From Candidatus Aenigmatarchaeota archaeon (GTDB lineage Archaea > Aenigmatarchaeota > Aenigmatarchaeia > CG10238-14): 64,000 nt of DNA. Every line of letters starts with the position of its first letter. Position 1 is the stretch's first letter. The notes under the pieces are model-generated. The model made no database searches and had not been told where the DNA came from. It worked only from the letters and a program-made list of their open reading frames with translations. Shown piece by piece: positions 34,953-41,141 of this stretch. The position numbers and the translations under genes were made by a program. The stretch lies in assembly GCA_044343545.1 (NCBI GenBank), contig JAWBZR010000002.1, forward strand, positions 19,213-83,212, in the 5' to 3' direction.

Positions 34953-35267
34953 ATGAACGTACAATTTGTAGGTTTTGACAAGTTTTCTTCCGAAATAAAA
35001 GATGATGTAAAAAAACAGTGTGATAGGCTTTTAGATAAATGCAAGAGGATTTTTGATGAAAAACATATAAAAACTCTAAAACTTTCGGTAGATAAGCTGA
35101 GAAAAAGAGGAGATCATACATTATTTGAGGTTAAGTGTTATCTTGAAGCGGGGAACAACTTGTTTTATGCTTCACATAGTGATTGGAATATATTGGATGC
35201 AGTAGAAAGGGTAGTTGAAGATATTTTGAAGCAAGTTATAAAGAAAAAGGAGATGCACGAAAGATGA
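34953..35267 (+). CDS. HPF/RaiA-like ribosome hibernation domain protein
   Basis: 104 aa, beta-alpha-beta-beta-beta-alpha pattern ending FYASHSDWNILDAVERVVEDILKQV. Confidence 0.6.
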   Translation: MNVQFVGFDKFSSEIKDDVKKQCDRLLDKCKRIFDEKHIKTLKLSVDKLRKRGDHTLFEVKCYLEAGNNLFYASHSDWNILDAVERVVEDILKQVIKKKEMHER

Positions 35268-35304: not shown

Positions 35305-35395
35305 AGCCCCGTCGTCTAGATGGCTTTGCCAGGATAACGGTCAAGGATAGCGGGCTTTGGACCCGTTGACAGCGGTTCGAATCCGCTCGGGGCTA
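35305..35395 (+). tRNA. tRNA-Gln(UUG) with 18-nt non-canonical intron at 15/16 (35320-35337)
   Basis: A1:U72 acceptor AGCCCCG/CGGGGCT-A; anticodon arm GCGGG-CTTTGGA-CCCGT; removing ATGGCTTTGCCAGGATAA restores D-loop AGCGGTCAA (73 nt). Confidence 0.92.
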
Positions 35396-35430
35396 TAAAA
35401 TCAAATAGATTAATATTTACTCTATTTTTT

Positions 35431-36063
35431 ATGCAATTAAGGCAAGTGTATGATGAAATTGCAGATAGTTGGAGTAATTTTAGAACAAAACCCAAAAAAT
35501 CCATACCTTTTGATAGAATAAGAGGTTTTGTGCTGGATGTTGGCTGTGGCAATGCAAGAAACATGATACCTTTGCTTAAGAAAGGAGTAAAATGCGTTGG
35601 AATAGATTTTTCAAAAAATATGATAAAAAACGCTTTGAAGTTGTGTGAAAAGCATGAAGTAGAAGCAGATTTTGTATTAGCAGACATGCTTCATCTTCCT
35701 TTCAAGAAAAAAGTGTTTGACGTGTGTTTATGCATATCAACCCTTCATCATTTGGATGATAGGTTGAAAAGAATAAAAGCTTTAAAGGAAATCAAGAGGG
35801 TTTGCAAGAAAGACATCTACATATTGGTGTGGTACAGATGGCAAATCTTTCACATAAAACATTTATTAAAAAATTTCATGCATTTCGGAGACGTATATGT
35901 AGAATGGAGAAAAAGAAACAAGATATTATATCGATACTATCATCTTTATACGAAGCACGAGCTAGAAAGAGATTTAAGTTTGGCTAGGTTAAAATTAATA
36001 GAAATTAAAATAACTAAAGAAAATAAAAAAAAGGATTTGTTTGCATATTGCACGGTGGTTTAG
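35431..36063 (+). CDS. Class I SAM methyltransferase, Trm9/ALKBH8-like (candidate tRNA cm5U34 methyltransferase)
   Basis: VYDEIA..WS..R.KP, VLDVGCGNAR, ISTLHHL...RIKAL.E, ILVW, RYYHLY...EL match the Trm9 pattern. Confidence 0.75.
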   Translation: MQLRQVYDEIADSWSNFRTKPKKSIPFDRIRGFVLDVGCGNARNMIPLLKKGVKCVGIDFSKNMIKNALKLCEKHEVEADFVLADMLHLPFKKKVFDVCLCISTLHHLDDRLKRIKALKEIKRVCKKDIYILVWYRWQIFHIKHLLKNFMHFGDVYVEWRKRNKILYRYYHLYTKHELERDLSLARLKLIEIKITKENKKKDLFAYCTVV

Positions 36064-36978
36064 GTGAAGTCATGTAGCAATTGTAAAAACAAAGCCATTT
36101 ACTTTAGAATGAATGAAGGTAGATATTATTGCAAAAAATGTTTTTCTAAAAACATTGAAGATAGAGTGAAAAGAGTCATAAGAAATTTCAATTTAGTTGA
36201 TAATGGAGATAATATAGCTGTAGCCCTTTCTGGAGGAAAAGATTCGTCAAACACTCTCTATATTCTTAAAAAAATATTTGAAAAAAATCCTAAAATCAGA
36301 ATTTTTGCCATAATTGTTGATGAAGGTTTTCATTTTAGAAAAGAAGCTATAAAAAAATCTAAAAAACTTTGCGAAGAGATTGGTGTAGAGTATTACATAT
36401 TTTATTTCAAGAAAGAGGTTGGGAAAACTATGGATAGTATTGGTAGAAAATTTAAAGATAAAAACATGTGCAGTTATTGCGGTGTTCTTAGAAGGTACTT
36501 GATTAATAAAAAGGCAAGAGAATTAAAGGCAAATAAAATAGCTTTAGGACATAACTTGGATGATGAGGTACAAAGCATAATAATGAATATTTTCAAGGGA
36601 GATTTTCTTCGAATGGCAAGGTTTGATTTTATGCCAAAAATAAGAGAAAATACAAAATTTGTACCACGGATAAAACCGCTTGCTATGATACCGGAGAAGG
36701 AGTCTGCTATTTATGCTATAACCAACAATTTGCCCATTTCCCTTTCTCATTGCCCATATGCAGCTCACAATCACTTGAGAATGGAAGTAAAGTATTTTTT
36801 GAATAAACTTGAGTTCGAATCTCCAGGAATAAAATATTCTATATTCAACAGTGGAAGAAAGCTTGCTAAAATATTGAAGGAAAATATGAAGATAGGGGAG
36901 ATAAATAACTGCAAGATTTGTGGAGAACCTAGCTCAGAAAGTGTGTGTCAAGCATGCAAGATTATTGAGAAATTATAG
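36064..36978 (+). CDS. ncsA: tRNA 2-thiouridine synthase, NcsA/Ctu1/TtuA family
   Basis: N- and C-terminal zinc fingers, SGGKDS PP-loop, CSYC, GHNLDD, PRIKPL, CPY. Confidence 0.88.
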   Translation: MKSCSNCKNKAIYFRMNEGRYYCKKCFSKNIEDRVKRVIRNFNLVDNGDNIAVALSGGKDSSNTLYILKKIFEKNPKIRIFAIIVDEGFHFRKEAIKKSKKLCEEIGVEYYIFYFKKEVGKTMDSIGRKFKDKNMCSYCGVLRRYLINKKARELKANKIALGHNLDDEVQSIIMNIFKGDFLRMARFDFMPKIRENTKFVPRIKPLAMIPEKESAIYAITNNLPISLSHCPYAAHNHLRMEVKYFLNKLEFESPGIKYSIFNSGRKLAKILKENMKIGEINNCKICGEPSSESVCQACKIIEKL

Positions 36979-37068
36979 AATCATCATATAAATCCTTCAA
37001 GAGGCTTGAAAAGATCCTGTTTGACAAATTAAAATCTTTATTATACTCAAGCATTTTTGCCAAGAAAA

Positions 37069-37239
37069 TCACCCTTTTTTATAATTATTTTCAATTTCCG
37101 CTATCTTTTCTTGCAAAAAAGCTATCCTATCTTGCCAATATTTGACCTGCCTCAAGTTTTTTGCTTTGAATAGTTGAGCCTTTGCATTAAACAATTCTTC
37201 TCTATAAAACCTCAATCTAAGCAGGTCTCGTTTGTTCAT
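37069..37239 (-). CDS. Small helical hairpin protein (56 aa, not in ORF track)
   Basis: MNKRDLLRLRFYREELFNAKAQLFKAKNLRQVKYWQDRIAFLQEKIAEIENNYKKG; amphipathic, fills the ncsA-elp3 gap. Confidence 0.5.
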   Translation of the reverse strand: MNKRDLLRLRFYREELFNAKAQLFKAKNLRQVKYWQDRIAFLQEKIAEIENNYKKG

Positions 37240-37341
37240 TTCAAATCACTATATTACTTTTTAGTGGTTCTTATATATAAATGTTACTACTATAAAATAG
37301 AAATATTATTTTATAGATATTGAAGTAGATAAATTTCAATT

Positions 37342-38916
37342 ATGATTACAGAGAGAGAGTTTGCCAAAATTTTTCTGAAAGAGTTTAGAGCAAGGAAGCC
37401 GAAAACAAAAGAAGAAGTGATCAAGCTTAAAAGAGAATTGGCGGCAAAGTTTGGCATAGAAGAACCGACAAATCCAGATATACTGAAGTATGCAAGCGAT
37501 GCATTTATAGAAAAGTACAGATCTCTTTTTGAAATAAAACCGACGAGAACCATATCCGGCGTGGCTACTATTACGGTTGCTTGTAAGCCAGCTTATTGTG
37601 GCGGTAACTGCAGTTATCGTCCTCCTTTAAGCAAGTTTGTGCCCAAGAGCTATTCTGCAAATGAACCAGCTATACAGAGAGCTATAAGAAACAAGTTTGA
37701 CCCTTATAGACAGGTGAGAGATAGATTGAGCCAATATAAAATAATGGGTCATCCCACGGACAAGATAGAAATCATAGTTTTGGGCGGAACCTTTTTGGCA
37801 ACAGAAAAGGAATATCAGCATAAATTTATTAAGGGAATTTTTGACGGATTAAACGGAAAGAGAGCTTCCACTTTGGAAGAAGCAAAAAGGATCAACGAAA
37901 CAGCAAGACATAGATGTGTAGGTTTAACGATAGAGACAAGGCCAGACTATTGTTTCGAGGAGCATGTCGATGCTTTATTGGAGTATGGCTGCACGAGAAT
38001 AGAGTTGGGAATGCAATCGATATATAATGACGTCTTGGATAGAGTTAATAGAGGTCATCATGTTGAAGAAACTATAAGAGCTATACAAATTGCAAAGGAT
38101 TCTGCTTTTAAGATCATATCTCATGTGATGCCATTCTTGCCTGGCTCAAGTGTTGAGAGGGATATAGATATGTTTAGGGAAATTTTTAGAAGTGAAGATT
38201 TGCAAGTAGACGAATTCAAGATATATCCTTGCGTTGTTGTTGAAGGAACAAAACTCTACGAGGAATGGAAGCAAGGAAAATATACTCCACCAACTTTGGA
38301 AGAAGCAGTCAAAGTTATTGTTGAAATGAAAAAAATGGCACCTCCTTGGGTGAGGTTCAGGAGAATTTTTAGAGATATTCCGGCAAACGAAATTGTTGCT
38401 GGTGTGAAGAAAAGTAACTTAAGAGAAATAGCGATAGAAAGGTTAAAGAAAGAGGGTTTGTGGTGTAGGTGCACCCGTTGTAGAGAGCCAGGGCATGCAA
38501 AGAAAATTTACTGGAGAGAAGTAGATAAAAGTCATATAAAGCTTGTCAGGAGAGATTATAGAGCATCGGGCGGAGATGAAATATTTCTTTCGTTTGAAGA
38601 TGTCAAGAATGATGTGCTTGTAGCTTTACTACGGCTAAGAATACCATATAAGCCGCATAGAAGAGAAATAGATGATAAGACAGCGTTGATAAGAGAGATT
38701 CATACCTATGGAAAAATGGTGCCTATAGATAAAGATGATTCGAATAGCTGGCAACATAAAGGTTTTGGCTCATTGTTGCTTGAAGAAGCAGAAAGAATTG
38801 CTAAGGAAGATTTTGACAAGAAAAAAATGATAGCTATATCGGGAGTTGGAGTAAAGAGTTGGTTTATGAAGCATGGATATAAGTATGAAGGACCTTATAT
38901 GAGCAAATTTATTTAA
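37342..38916 (+). CDS. elp3: Elp3 tRNA uridine(34) carboxymethylase (radical SAM + KAT)
   Basis: RTISGVA, KIE.IVLGGTF, IETRPDY, RIELGMQS, KIYP, RIFRDIP, CRC.RCRE, IREIHTYG, QHKGFG, GPYMSK. Confidence 0.95.
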   Translation: MITEREFAKIFLKEFRARKPKTKEEVIKLKRELAAKFGIEEPTNPDILKYASDAFIEKYRSLFEIKPTRTISGVATITVACKPAYCGGNCSYRPPLSKFVPKSYSANEPAIQRAIRNKFDPYRQVRDRLSQYKIMGHPTDKIEIIVLGGTFLATEKEYQHKFIKGIFDGLNGKRASTLEEAKRINETARHRCVGLTIETRPDYCFEEHVDALLEYGCTRIELGMQSIYNDVLDRVNRGHHVEETIRAIQIAKDSAFKIISHVMPFLPGSSVERDIDMFREIFRSEDLQVDEFKIYPCVVVEGTKLYEEWKQGKYTPPTLEEAVKVIVEMKKMAPPWVRFRRIFRDIPANEIVAGVKKSNLREIAIERLKKEGLWCRCTRCREPGHAKKIYWREVDKSHIKLVRRDYRASGGDEIFLSFEDVKNDVLVALLRLRIPYKPHRREIDDKTALIREIHTYGKMVPIDKDDSNSWQHKGFGSLLLEEAERIAKEDFDKKKMIAISGVGVKSWFMKHGYKYEGPYMSKFI

Positions 38917-39655
38917 GATATGGGGGGTGGGGTATACGATGAGTTGATCGTGTGAGATATTCTAAATTATAAGTTTCATAGGCATATAACCAAAAATGAG
39001 TACCTTTTTTTGTTTGATTTAATAGCATATTCCTTGTTTTTCTAAGACGATCTAAAGGTATTCCATATTCCAAAACTGCCTCTCTCAATGCTTCTCTAGA
39101 TACATAAGCTAACTTCTCAGGATCTTCTCCTCTGTCATTTATCACCTTTGCTACCCTTTCAGCCCTTTCTTTCGTTGCTGCATATGGATGCAACATAGTT
39201 ATGTAGTATACTCCTAGGTGTGGAGCAGGTACGCGTAGACCATTTGAAACTATTACATCAAATCTTTCCTCAAAATCAATATCAATTACGTCTACCCTTC
39301 CTTCAAAAACACAAAGTGGTACACGACCTAAATATGTTCCAGCATCATATAGACAAAAATCACCATTATATACATGAAATGAAGGGTTTCTTTCTAGCTT
39401 TCTTATTCTATTAACACCTAAAATAACACCTTCATATCTATTTGTTCTTTCAAGGAAAGTTCCATTATTGCTAACAACGATTCTTTGAACCTCTCCAACA
39501 CAACCACAAGCAACGACAATATCCAAATCATTTGGTTCATAATTTAAATTTTTAGACAAATAAAGTAAAAGAAATGATCCTACAATTCTCACTCTATCAT
39601 ATCCTAATTCATTTAATAAAAATTTAACCGCCTTTTCACCAACATCCTTTCTCAT
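38909..39655 (-). CDS. Putative nucleotidyltransferase (Pol-beta superfamily-like), unknown function
   Basis: VRIVGS...PNDLDIVV (GS + DxD); ATG at 39655 preferred. Confidence 0.5.
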   Translation of the reverse strand: MRKDVGEKAVKFLLNELGYDRVRIVGSFLLLYLSKNLNYEPNDLDIVVACGCVGEVQRIVVSNNGTFLERTNRYEGVILGVNRIRKLERNPSFHVYNGDFCLYDAGTYLGRVPLCVFEGRVDVIDIDFEERFDVIVSNGLRVPAPHLGVYYITMLHPYAATKERAERVAKVINDRGEDPEKLAYVSREALREAVLEYGIPLDRLRKTRNMLLNQTKKGTHFWLYAYETYNLEYLTRSTHRIPHPPYLK

Positions 39656-39719
39656 AAAATAGTGATTTAAAAAATAGTTTTTTAAAAATTTATGTTTTCG
39701 TTTTGCCAAAATTTATTTT

Positions 39720-41141
39720 ATGAAATATGACAAAATTCTAAAAGAGGTTTTAAAAAAAATCACGCCTAAATCAAAAGAAGAAAAAAAAATCAAGTCACTG
39801 AGTAAAAAAATACTTGAAACAGCAAATCATCTTTCATTTTTCTACGGAGCTAAGGCTATTTTAGCCGGTTCATTAACAAGAAATACATGGTTGCCAAATA
39901 AAAATGAAATAGATGTTTTTATCCTCTTCCCGAAAAATTTGAGCATAAAACATTTAGAGGAAAATGGTTTGGAAGTTGGCAAAAAAATAGTAGAAGAATT
40001 AGGTGGCAAGTGGACAATAGAATATGCGCAACACCCTTACATAAGAGGAACAATAAATGGCATAAACATCGACATCGTTCCTTGTTACAAATTAGAAAAA
40101 GGAGAAAAAATAATATCTGCTGTTGATAGAACGCAATTTCATGTAGAATACTTGGAAAATAAGATATCTAAAAAATTAAGTAGCGAGGTTAGACTGTTAA
40201 AACAATTTTTGAAAGCTAATGGCTTGTATGGCGCTGATGCAAAAACAAATGGCTTTTCCGGATATTTATGCGAGTTGTTGATAATTCATTACAAGAATTT
40301 TTTGAATTTTCTTGAAGCAGCAAAAAATTGGAGAGTAAAAGAAATAATAGACATAGAAAATCAATGGAAAAAAGAAGAGTACAATCATTTGAAGAAAAAG
40401 TTTAAGGATGAAGTTTTGATAGTGATAGATCCTGTAGACAAGGAAAGAAACGTTGCTTCGGCGGTTAGCGCTTATAACTTTTTCAAACTGAAAAAATTAG
40501 CAAGAGAATTTTTGGAAAATCCAAGTGAAAGTTTCTTTTTTGAAAAAGAAATTAAACCTCTTTCTAAAAAAGAATTTGATGAGGTTTTAAAAGAGAGAGG
40601 AACTGAAATAATAGGTATATTTTTCGAGCCACCAAAGATAGTTCCAGATATATTATGGCCACAATTAAGAAAAGCAACCAAAAGATTAGAAAGCATAATT
40701 GAAGAGTACGAGTTTTCTGTTTTGAAAAGCGATTGTTGGACTGATGAAAAAAAGATTGCAGTCATTTTATTAGAAATGCAAGTAAGCAATTTACCTAGAA
40801 TTGATAAAATAATTGGCCCATGGGTTTTTGATGAAAAAAACGCGAAAAATTTTGCTGAGAAACACAAAGCTGATGCAATAGCAGGACCATACATAGAAGA
40901 TAATTGTTGGGTGGTTGAGGTTAAGAGAAAATGGACATCTGCTAAACTTAAATTAATAGATTCTATAAGTAAAGATAAGGAAATTCTCAAAGCAAAAGGA
41001 ATACCAAATTTTATTGCCGAGCAATTATCAAAAGATTTCAATGTAGTTTCAAACGATGAAATAAAAAATTATTTCAAAAACAAAGAGTTTGCAATATTCA
41101 TGAGAAAATATTTTGAAAAGGAAAATCTTGCTTTATTTTAG
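39720..41141 (+). CDS. cca: CCA-adding enzyme (class I, archaeal)
   Basis: GSLTRNTWL...EIDVF, YAQHPY, DIVPCY, SAVDRT.FH, GFSGYLCEL, DPVD..RNVA. Confidence 0.95.
   Translation: MKYDKILKEVLKKITPKSKEEKKIKSLSKKILETANHLSFFYGAKAILAGSLTRNTWLPNKNEIDVFILFPKNLSIKHLEENGLEVGKKIVEELGGKWTIEYAQHPYIRGTINGINIDIVPCYKLEKGEKIISAVDRTQFHVEYLENKISKKLSSEVRLLKQFLKANGLYGADAKTNGFSGYLCELLIIHYKNFLNFLEAAKNWRVKEIIDIENQWKKEEYNHLKKKFKDEVLIVIDPVDKERNVASAVSAYNFFKLKKLAREFLENPSESFFFEKEIKPLSKKEFDEVLKERGTEIIGIFFEPPKIVPDILWPQLRKATKRLESIIEEYEFSVLKSDCWTDEKKIAVILLEMQVSNLPRIDKIIGPWVFDEKNAKNFAEKHKADAIAGPYIEDNCWVVEVKRKWTSAKLKLIDSISKDKEILKAKGIPNFIAEQLSKDFNVVSNDEIKNYFKNKEFAIFMRKYFEKENLALF

Follow-up and report, generated by a model that had tools for sequence, protein, structure and literature searches.

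A candidate gene cluster for wobble-uridine modification, with Elp3, a Trm9-type methyltransferase and an NcsA-type thiolase, conserved next to tRNA-Gln in Aenigmatarchaeota

We describe a locus in a DPANN archaeon of the Aenigmatarchaeota that is best read as a conserved cluster of genes by which the wobble uridine (U34) of tRNA would receive its xm5(s2)U modification, and in which Elp3, a Trm9-type enzyme with its partner Trm112, and NcsA would act one after the other. It lies in a stretch of 64,000 nucleotides that we call the window (positions 19213-83212 of contig C11), within a genome of 651,488 bases in 22 contigs, estimated to be 90.45% complete; DNA nearly identical to the window is present in hot-spring metagenomes from two studies. 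Positions 35305-38916 of the window hold, in this order on the plus strand, the genes for a tRNA-Gln(UUG) and for three enzymes, a Trm9-type methyltransferase, an NcsA-type 2-thiolase and Elp3, four elements that an earlier, sequence-only reading of this DNA had placed on one strand at exactly these positions. Judging from homology and gene context, we give the wobble-uridine reading a probability of about 0.7. The family assignments, catalytic residues, linkage and co-occurrence were computed here; what we infer is the chemistry of each step, the nucleoside that finally results and the source of its sulfur.

The route that we propose would run as follows. Elp3 would use S-adenosylmethionine (SAM) and acetyl-CoA to place a carboxymethyl group on C5 of U34, giving 5-carboxymethyluridine (cm5U). 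The Trm9-type methyltransferase, bound to a Trm112 subunit whose gene lies outside the cluster, would methyl-esterify this group to 5-methoxycarbonylmethyluridine (mcm5U), and the NcsA-type thiolase would adenylate C2 and swap its oxygen for sulfur via a [4Fe-4S] cluster, yielding 5-methoxycarbonylmethyl-2-thiouridine (mcm5s2U). The predicted targets are tRNA-Gln(UUG), tRNA-Lys(UUU) and tRNA-Glu(UUC), for all of which the genome carries genes, and the neighbouring intron-bearing tRNA-Gln(UUG) would be one of these substrates.

The methyltransferase gene (35431..36063, plus strand) starts 35 nucleotides beyond the 3' end of the tRNA gene (35305..35395, plus strand), and its TAG stop codon (36061-36063) stands immediately before the GTG start codon (36064) of the thiolase gene (36064..36978, plus strand), an abutment already noticed in the sequence-only reading. 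That reading also had Elp3 (37342..38916, plus strand) come next; within the 363 nucleotides that separate thiolase and Elp3 lies a minus-strand open reading frame (ORF) of 56 amino acids (37069..37239), which it had missed. The synteny survey that had been suggested as a check found the cluster conserved among relatives. The window and the nine other genomes searched of its family, f1, share the complete run of tRNA-Gln, Trm9, NcsA, antisense ORF and Elp3 (10/10), which returns in G093, of family f4, where the tRNA is a Gln(CUG) some 300 nucleotides upstream with an ORF between; in all, 11 genomes have the thiolase gene placed between those of Trm9 and Elp3. Recurrence in every family genome searched, and partly across the order, indicates that the arrangement is more than chance.

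The association of the Trm9-like gene with Elp3 reaches much further. We searched 151 Aenigmatarchaeota genomes, for which we give no statistic because of the kinship among them. Sixty matched a Trm9-like query at E <= 1e-12, and 51 were kept as Trm9-like once nine with core-only matches had been dropped (G086, G129, G102, G004, G035, G056, G081, G045 and G145). Elp3 occurs in 66 of the 151 genomes and in 50 of the 51 Trm9-like ones; conversely, a Trm9-like gene is found in 50 of the 66 genomes with Elp3 (16 do without) and in just 1 of the 85 that lack it. The two genes share a contig in 35 genomes and are at most 3 kb apart in 31 of the 50, co-directional in 15 and divergent in 16. In a wider survey, which took one genome per GTDB species and the 5-kb flanks of the best 80 Trm9-like loci (several of them cut by contig ends), the loci came from Aenigmatarchaeota, Woesearchaeota, Micrarchaeota, Thermoplasmata and Thermoproteota, and in their majority from Dehalococcoidia/Chloroflexota. 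Elp3 was present in the flanks of 51 of these 80 best loci, including 33 of 42 in Chloroflexota and 5 of 9 in Woesearchaeota, and in none of 11 in Thermoplasmata. NcsA flanked 12 of the 80, namely 11 Aenigmatarchaeota-like loci and one from a Woesearchaeote (L083).

Two layouts in this survey deserve a word of their own. In the Dehalococcoidia/Chloroflexota loci (L079-L144), the Trm9-like gene stands divergently beside Elp3 in 33 of the 42 from Chloroflexota; from gene content, this suggests that the stand-alone Elp3 of bacteria may also feed a methyl-ester step. The Woesearchaeal locus L083 shows an independent arrangement of the three genes, with NcsA and Elp3 co-directional and Trm9 divergent.

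The assignment of the methyltransferase (210 amino acids, a class I SAM-dependent enzyme) rests on Pfam, on a profile search against PDB and on linkage. Pfam and NCBIfam place it only in generic class I families (Methyltransf_11 at 78.9 bits, with Methyltransf_25 also matched, and UbiE-type models at 45-49 bits). A word-indexed search returned 45 homologs at E <= 1e-5, and those with an organism name are mostly from Aenigmatarchaeota; four are called TRM9 by the automatic annotation of the Joint Genome Institute (JGI), and most others 'UbiE' or 'class I SAM-dependent methyltransferase'. The best 120 matches of a profile search are all prokaryotic, metagenomic proteins. These generic models and names, together with an unspecific fold search, are what would favour a class I enzyme of the UbiE or small-molecule type, unrelated to tRNA. 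We consider this extremely improbable in view of the family profile. When a profile of 32 family members was compared with PDB, the best match was Trm9 from Yarrowia lipolytica (5cm2_Z, 82.9 bits, E 2e-22), aligned from profile position 16-209 to chain position 3-192 and so reaching the C-terminal lid; the alignment takes in the C-terminal W..Q, DV.V.W and RYYHLY motifs, substrate-binding elements that are absent from generic methyltransferases. With the single sequence as query, 5cm2_Z ranks third, yet it is the sole long match. Chain 6f5z_A, tabulated as '24-sterol C-methyltransferase' and which we take to be the entry for Haloferax volcanii (Hvo) Trm9-Trm112, reached 34.9 bits in the family profile search, over the core only. 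A generic enzyme is also hard to square with the predicted binding of Trm112, with the four TRM9 names, and with genes that, both in archaea and in Chloroflexota, occur almost exclusively together with Elp3 and adjacent to it.

The residues that matter for catalysis are largely kept, with one exception that is taken up below. G38-C39-G40 of motif I (GCGxG) and the SAM-binding D59 are invariant across the family, D59 being aligned to D83 of the Yarrowia enzyme, the equivalent of D72 in Saccharomyces cerevisiae Trm9. Létoquart et al. (PMC4678810) report eight residues of yeast Trm9 that leave the enzyme inactive or strongly impaired when changed to alanine. Mapped by hand through the HMMER alignment, seven of the eight are kept in the window protein: R29, D72, H116, W145, W168, R241 and Y243 of yeast correspond here to R18, D59, H106, W134, W159, R168 and Y170. 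From homology, we predict a Trm9-type enzyme that would methyl-esterify cm5U34 to mcm5U34 together with a Trm112 partner.

Such a partner is encoded in the genome. A Trm112 homolog of 68 amino acids with two CxxC pairs lies at C1:89830-90036 and matches Pfam Trm112p at 35.1-35.7 bits (cut-off 22). Across the phylum, 93 of the 151 genomes have a homolog of it, among them 48 of the 51 that are Trm9-like. When the methyltransferase and Trm112 families were co-folded, the interface score ipSAE was 0.87 in each of three runs and 0.00 for the best control; of 157 solved complexes, 116 attain the mark that we apply to this score, as do 2 of 215 mismatched pairs. Contact agreement between the runs was 100%, with a predicted local distance difference test (pLDDT) value of at least 91 for Trm112, and in the predicted interface the methyltransferase contributes residues 80-95, and Trm112 residues 10-15 and 43-48. 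Trm9 has been described to contact the zinc-binding domain of Trm112 via a parallel beta-zipper (PMC4678810). The modelling thus predicts that Trm112 binds the methyltransferase, and as Trm9-Trm112 and other Trm112 complexes have been solved, the pass may reflect likeness to them. The sequence-only reading, seeing no Trm112 in the window, had proposed that the enzymes might work without partners; for the methyltransferase this idea finds no support, since a predicted partner sits elsewhere in the genome.

The thiolase (304 amino acids) is assigned by PDB and NCBIfam searches to the PP-loop, [4Fe-4S]-dependent tRNA 2-thiolases of the NcsA/Ncs6/Ctu1 type. Its PP-loop motif SGGxDS reads S56-G-G-K-D-S61; C136, C139 and C230 align with Cys142, Cys145 and Cys233, the [4Fe-4S] ligands of Methanococcus maripaludis NcsA (MmNcsA; numbering of PMC10067955); and CxxC pairs at residues 4-7, 23-26, 284-287 and 296-299 mark the N- and C-terminal zinc-finger regions, where Pfam TtuA_LIM_N and zn-ribbon_14 match, both below cut-off. 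Alternatively, the enzyme could be of the TtuA type, which makes s2U54 and contributes to thermostabilisation, or of the TtcA type, which makes s2C32, its place in the cluster being incidental. An organism found in hot-spring metagenomes would suit the former, and the TtuA and NcsA families share their architecture and cluster cysteines (PMC10067955); the NCBIfam scores are also close, at 216.5 bits for NcsA, 175.6 for TtuA and 128.6 for TtcA, each under its curated equivalog cut-off. Still, NcsA comes first in both databases, with 194.8 bits for M. maripaludis NcsA (6scy) in PDB against 150.8 for TtuA of Pyrococcus horikoshii and 88 for TtuA of Thermus. The phylum has two groups of thiolase paralogs, NcsA-like and TtuA-like. 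Four copies that matched our query weakly (G093:C41, G150:C2, G025:C2 and G137:C10; L058-L061) score 230-305 bits with the TtuA model and 85-107 with NcsA, and three strongly matching copies score higher with NcsA than with TtuA. The window thiolase passes TIGR00269 (105.3 bits, cut-off 62.75), a model that did not appear for the four TtuA-like paralogs in a scan at E <= 1e-20. G093 has both types, and the copy in its cluster is the NcsA-like one; in the window genome, the only NcsA/TtuA-family gene found with an NcsA query is NcsA-like (Ctu2/Ncs2 was not searched for). The position of the gene between Trm9 and Elp3 in 11 genomes argues further against an incidental neighbour. We also noticed that some Aenigmatarchaeota carry a TtuA-like paralog besides the NcsA-like gene, or in its place.

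Position 54 also bears on this alternative. No match to PF05958, the family of TrmA/RumA-type m5U methyltransferases, was found in the genome, and a Methyltrn_RNA_2 protein was (144.1 bits), from a family that presumably holds TrmY, the m1-pseudouridine-54 methylase. Taken together, this fits a pseudouridine-derived nucleoside at position 54 and argues against m5U54, the substrate of TtuA. We accordingly hold an enzyme of the TtuA or TtcA type to be very improbable and keep to an NcsA-type thiolase acting, as predicted, on U34.

As for the sulfur, its most likely candidate sources are cluster-bound sulfide and a ThiS-like protein of 66 amino acids ending in GG, encoded on contig C6 (32.9-34.2 bits); sulfide would be the simplest reading, by analogy with MmNcsA, which uses sulfide on its cluster in vitro (PMC10067955). 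The genome also encodes a protein of the cysteine-desulfurase family (493 bits). The search for Trm112, SAMP/Urm1 and UbaA that had been suggested along with the sequence-only reading was thus only partly rewarding, with Trm112 and the ThiS-like GG protein recovered and Urm1 and E1 not found in the window genome. The same reading had taken the want of a ubiquitin-like carrier in the window as a hint of partner independence; the ThiS-like protein, and the presence of E1/ThiF above cut-off in 7 of 21 family genomes, the same-genus G006 and G078 included, leave that idea unsupported.

Elp3 (524 amino acids, with radical SAM and KAT/GNAT domains) is the predicted cm5U34 synthase. It matches TIGR01211 at 651.7 bits (cut-off 350) over residues 15-523, and the solved Elp3 of Methanocaldococcus infernus (6ia8) at 569 bits over residues 25-522. 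All three enzyme names given in the sequence-only reading therefore stand: Trm9-type by profile, NcsA-type and not TtuA-type by PDB, NCBIfam and paralogs, and Elp3 by TIGR01211 and 6ia8.

Several observations weigh against our reading and have to be set beside this evidence. The eighth essential residue of yeast Trm9, N271, proposed to read O2/N3 of U34 (PMC4678810), is replaced by Asp202 here, a change shared with the closest relative only, the equivalent position being Asn in 30 of the 32 family members. For the AlphaFold2 model of the methyltransferase (pLDDT 92.2), Foldseek against PDB ranks 5cm2_Z third (E 5e-14), near-tied with the uncharacterised archaeal proteins 3sm3 and 1ve3, so that, as modelled, the fold by itself does not separate Trm9 from other small class I methyltransferases. 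The NcsA score of the thiolase, 216.5 bits, exceeds that of the TtuA model by only 41 bits and stays far under the 500 bits that NCBIfam sets as equivalog cut-off. Many lineages of the phylum have NcsA-type genes and no Elp3 (for instance 7/7 genomes of f11, 12/12 of f13 and 14/14 of f19), which means that thiolation is not tied to the Elp3 branch. ThiF/E1 above the Pfam cut-off was not found in the 90%-complete window genome (best 18.4 bits), nor in G010, G008 and G011, which are 93-97% complete. In the available text of van Tran et al. (PMC6144793), the Haloferax evidence covers mcm5U only, not mcm5s2U. Finally, the archaeal radical-SAM triad C-x4-C-x2-C of Elp3 reads C86, C90 and R93 in the window, its third cysteine being replaced.

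This last point raises the question of whether the strain has an inactive Elp3 (Cys93Arg) and a decaying pathway, with only s2U, or nothing, left at U34. The codon at 37618-37620 of the window is indeed CGT, for arginine, and the column holds a cysteine in 20 of 20 relatives. Three metagenomic contigs cover position 37618, two from run X4 (study P2) and one from run X3 (study P1), and all of them have T there, which restores TGT and hence the cysteine; in each, this position is the only difference from the window over 205-396 bases. Contig depth at Elp3 is low (2.5-3.1 per contig), and no contig of runs X1 or X2 reaches the position. When a metagenome is assembled at low coverage, a lone C/T difference of this kind is commonly an error or a minor allele. 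Elsewhere the gene is undamaged, with 80% identity to that of the nearest relative, and the closest relatives also have an extra cysteine, Cys81, upstream of the triad. Because contigs from two other runs read Cys, we take Arg93 to be probably a minor allele or a mistake of the assembly, and the population's Elp3 probably to have a normal triad; a decaying pathway seems to us quite improbable, and we retain a functional Elp3 as the predicted first enzyme of the route.

The tRNA gene at the head of the cluster is unusual in its own way. Default-mode ARAGORN calls no tRNA at 35305, and the Rfam tRNA match (35322-35395) reaches 29.4 bits, just above the gathering score of 29. The reason for both is an intron of about 17 nucleotides in the D-loop, which the sequence-only reading had missed while naming correctly a tRNA-Gln(UUG) 35 nucleotides before the methyltransferase. 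By eye, the gene has a perfect acceptor stem of 7 base pairs (AGCCCCG/CGGGGCT), a T-arm and an anticodon loop CUUUGGA with anticodon UUG, and its D-region is too long by about 17 nucleotides; the intron would span roughly 35324-35340, its borders being ambiguous by 1-2 nucleotides owing to flanking GG repeats. We removed 8-29 nucleotides at 33 positions around the D-region, and among the 726 variants so made, ARAGORN gave Gln(ttg) in 318 of 492 tRNA calls. The deduced mature D-arm, GTCT-AGATGGTCAA-GGAT, fits that of the intron-less tRNA-Gln of relative G150, GTCT-AGTGGTCAA-GGAT. The same intron site recurs in 3 of 3 same-genus relatives, in which the intron's hairpin stem has its third base pair altered on both sides (GGC/GCC to GGT/ACC). 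When the pre-tRNA was folded by minimum free energy, the borders of the intron formed no clear bulge-helix-bulge. With introns allowed, ARAGORN calls the gene Val(aac), which we rejected, as the deletion scan and the relatives give Gln(UUG). No second tRNA-Gln(UUG) was found in the genome.

Counted by eye, the tRNA-Gln(UUG) genes of family f1 have from one to about five introns each, the upper figure being that of G084 (L012), and in L011, L012, L014, L015 and L016 they occupy non-canonical sites in the acceptor stem, D-arm, anticodon loop and T-arm. ARAGORN mislabels several of these genes as Val, Pro or Leu. A further case in the window genome is the minus-strand tRNA at C15:1785-1882, which ARAGORN reports as an intron-containing Arg(ccg), yet its anticodon loop reads CUUUCGA; it is probably the tRNA-Glu(UUC) of the genome, its D-region holding an insertion comparable to the one in tRNA-Gln.

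What does the proximity of this tRNA to the enzymes mean? The sequence-only reading had made much of three enzymes sitting beside a cognate substrate, and in the window the tRNA does have the UUG anticodon. All 10 genomes of family f1 keep this anticodon in the cluster tRNA, and 13 genomes of the order with a tRNA directly upstream of Trm9 keep a spacer of 19-44 nucleotides (measured by eye). The upstream tRNAs of relatives were identified with Rfam for half of the loci, and for the other ten (L018-L027) by eye and a short pattern only. The logic of the argument is weakened by four relatives that have a tRNA-Gln(CUG) in this place, G093 and three genomes of family f2 (G014, G150 and G146) in which it stands directly upstream of Trm9-Elp3 without NcsA; a C34 is no substrate for Elp3 or NcsA. 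Seven further loci, with Elp3 divergent or co-directional, had no tRNA in the 450 nucleotides upstream, and in the wider survey no tRNA-Gln was called within 500 nucleotides upstream in the 69 loci outside the Aenigmatarchaeota-like L066-L076, although intron-rich genes could escape such a scan.

The position of tRNA-Gln beside Trm9 is an order-wide synteny and not a requirement of the pathway. It may be that the tRNA adjoins the enzyme genes only through inherited synteny or a shared promoter architecture, whether it is a substrate or not, and the balance tips slightly toward this view. The CUG copies favour it, and so does a surrounding region that looks generally devoted to translation, with an HPF-like gene, a CCA-adding enzyme, a threonyl-tRNA synthetase (ThrRS) and a diphthamide-synthesis gene nearby. 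Also, in most relatives a TATA-like, A/T-rich stretch can be seen by eye right after the 3' end of the tRNA, so that the Trm9 gene may have its own promoter. The UUG anticodon and short spacer kept throughout the family pull in the other direction, and UUG and CUG are an easy one-base change apart, so the CUG copies may be secondary. A bolder proposal, which we regard as doubtful, is that tRNA-Gln and Trm9, with or without NcsA, form one transcription unit, and that the 56-residue ORF encodes an unrecognised small factor of the neighbourhood. If this were true, the mRNA of the enzymes that modify this tRNA, leaderless or with a short leader, would obtain its 5' end when the tRNA 3' end is excised, and enzyme supply would be tied to the synthesis of tRNA-Gln.

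The 56-residue ORF, known from the ORF listing and from relatives, is itself well conserved. All 10 related cluster loci have a copy, 52-86% identical, in the corresponding place, and the ORF is found in 50 of the 51 genomes of the order (families f1-f6) searched besides the window genome, with only 2 genomes outside the order having it. It belongs to no known family, as its comparison with Pfam and PDB profiles gave chance-level matches only (best E 0.012 and 0.022, respectively). The protein is helical and, where Elp3 is present, usually adjoins it; it is also kept in genomes without Elp3. We set aside the idea of an accessory factor of Elp3, as 31 of the 32 f2 genomes carry the ORF, while Elp3 is present in no more than 11 of that family.

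Around the cluster, other genes give context without belonging to the proposed pathway. Upstream, on the plus strand, lies a gene for an HPF/RaiA-like protein of 104 amino acids (34953..35267) that matches Pfam Ribosomal_S30AE at 23 bits, just below the cut-off of 23.7, and precedes the tRNA in 8 of 10 cluster loci. Downstream, also on the plus strand, an archaeal CCA-adding enzyme (39720..41141) is recognised by tRNA_NucTransf2 (145 bits) and CAA_C (126.8 bits), and a match to it begins within about 150 nucleotides after Elp3 in the loci of six relatives (L013, L014 and L018-L021). ThrRS and the diphthamide-synthesis gene are close to the cluster. Between Elp3 and the CCA-adding enzyme, the ORF listing has a minus-strand frame of 266 amino acids (38909..39709) that overlaps the last 8 nucleotides of Elp3; it has no Pfam or NCBIfam match and no counterpart among 20 relatives' loci, and by eye it shows a GS...DxD pattern reminiscent of small nucleotidyltransferases.

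The archaeal Elp3/Trm9-Trm112/NcsA pathway and a partial clustering of its genes are already known, and the locus is a fairly ordinary example of them. The novelty claimed in the sequence-only reading was overstated: in Haloferax, Trm9-Trm112 makes mcm5U and Trm9 needs Trm112 (van Tran et al., 2018; PMC6144793), thiolation at the wobble position depends on NcsA (PMC4048286), and an mcm5s2U-like U34 had been predicted from the homologs of Trm9, Elp3 and Tuc1 by Grosjean et al. (2008; PMC2584109), who also describe a clustering of Tuc1, Elp3 and Trm9 family genes, including an Elp3-Trm9 cluster in Sulfolobus solfataricus, and find that Elp3 is the only Elp protein with archaeal homologs. Haloferax volcanii has the same three enzyme families (Elp3 HVO_2888, Trm9 HVO_1032 with Trm112, and NcsA with SAMP2/UbaA). 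Its gene numbers (HVO_1032, HVO_2888, HVO_0580) suggest, from the numbering alone, that the genes are scattered, whereas in the window they are contiguous and beside tRNA-Gln; Haloferax has UbaA, whereas no E1 was found in the window genome. The window methyltransferase is also closer to eukaryotic Trm9 (82.9 bits, full length) than to 6f5z_A (34.9 bits, core). In S. solfataricus the same Elp3 and Trm9 families are physically linked, and here all three families and tRNA-Gln stand in one run. M. maripaludis NcsA (6scy), a U34 thiolase that uses sulfide, aligns with the window thiolase in its three cluster cysteines, its PP-loop and both zinc-finger regions; unlike the Methanococcales as described in the available text of PMC10067955, the window genome encodes a cysteine-desulfurase-family protein.

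Compared with eukaryotes, where Elongator, Trm9-Trm112 (ALKBH8-TRMT112) and Ncs6-Ncs2 (Ctu1-Ctu2) with Urm1-Uba4 serve the tRNAs for Gln, Lys and Glu, we would expect the same chemistry on the same tRNAs. The methyltransferase keeps all of the essential Trm9 residues but the Asn271 equivalent, which is Asp. Elp3 stands alone here, in a genome in which Elp1, Elp2 and Elp4-6 were not searched for; likewise, one NcsA/TtuA-family gene was found, Ncs2/Ctu2 was not searched for, and Urm1 was not found.

The locus opens no new kind of system. What it adds is the contiguous arrangement of the three enzymes in a DPANN order, with a conserved tRNA-Gln neighbour, and the linkage of Trm9 and Elp3 across that order and also in Woesearchaeota, Micrarchaeota and Dehalococcoidia; among the papers listed in a literature search on Elp3 and Trm9 in DPANN archaea, none showed a DPANN occurrence, which does not prove that nothing has been published. 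The practical gains would be better annotation and a source of compact, possibly thermostable enzymes for reconstituting mcm5s2U in vitro. For the family, the data support the view that a prokaryotic group of Trm9-like proteins, now mostly carrying 'UbiE' or generic names, acts as the partner of stand-alone Elp3 in archaea and Dehalococcoidia. For the organism, the genomic context supports the idea that DPANN genomes of about 0.65 Mb keep a full Elp3/Trm9-Trm112/NcsA route for the modification of the wobble uridine.

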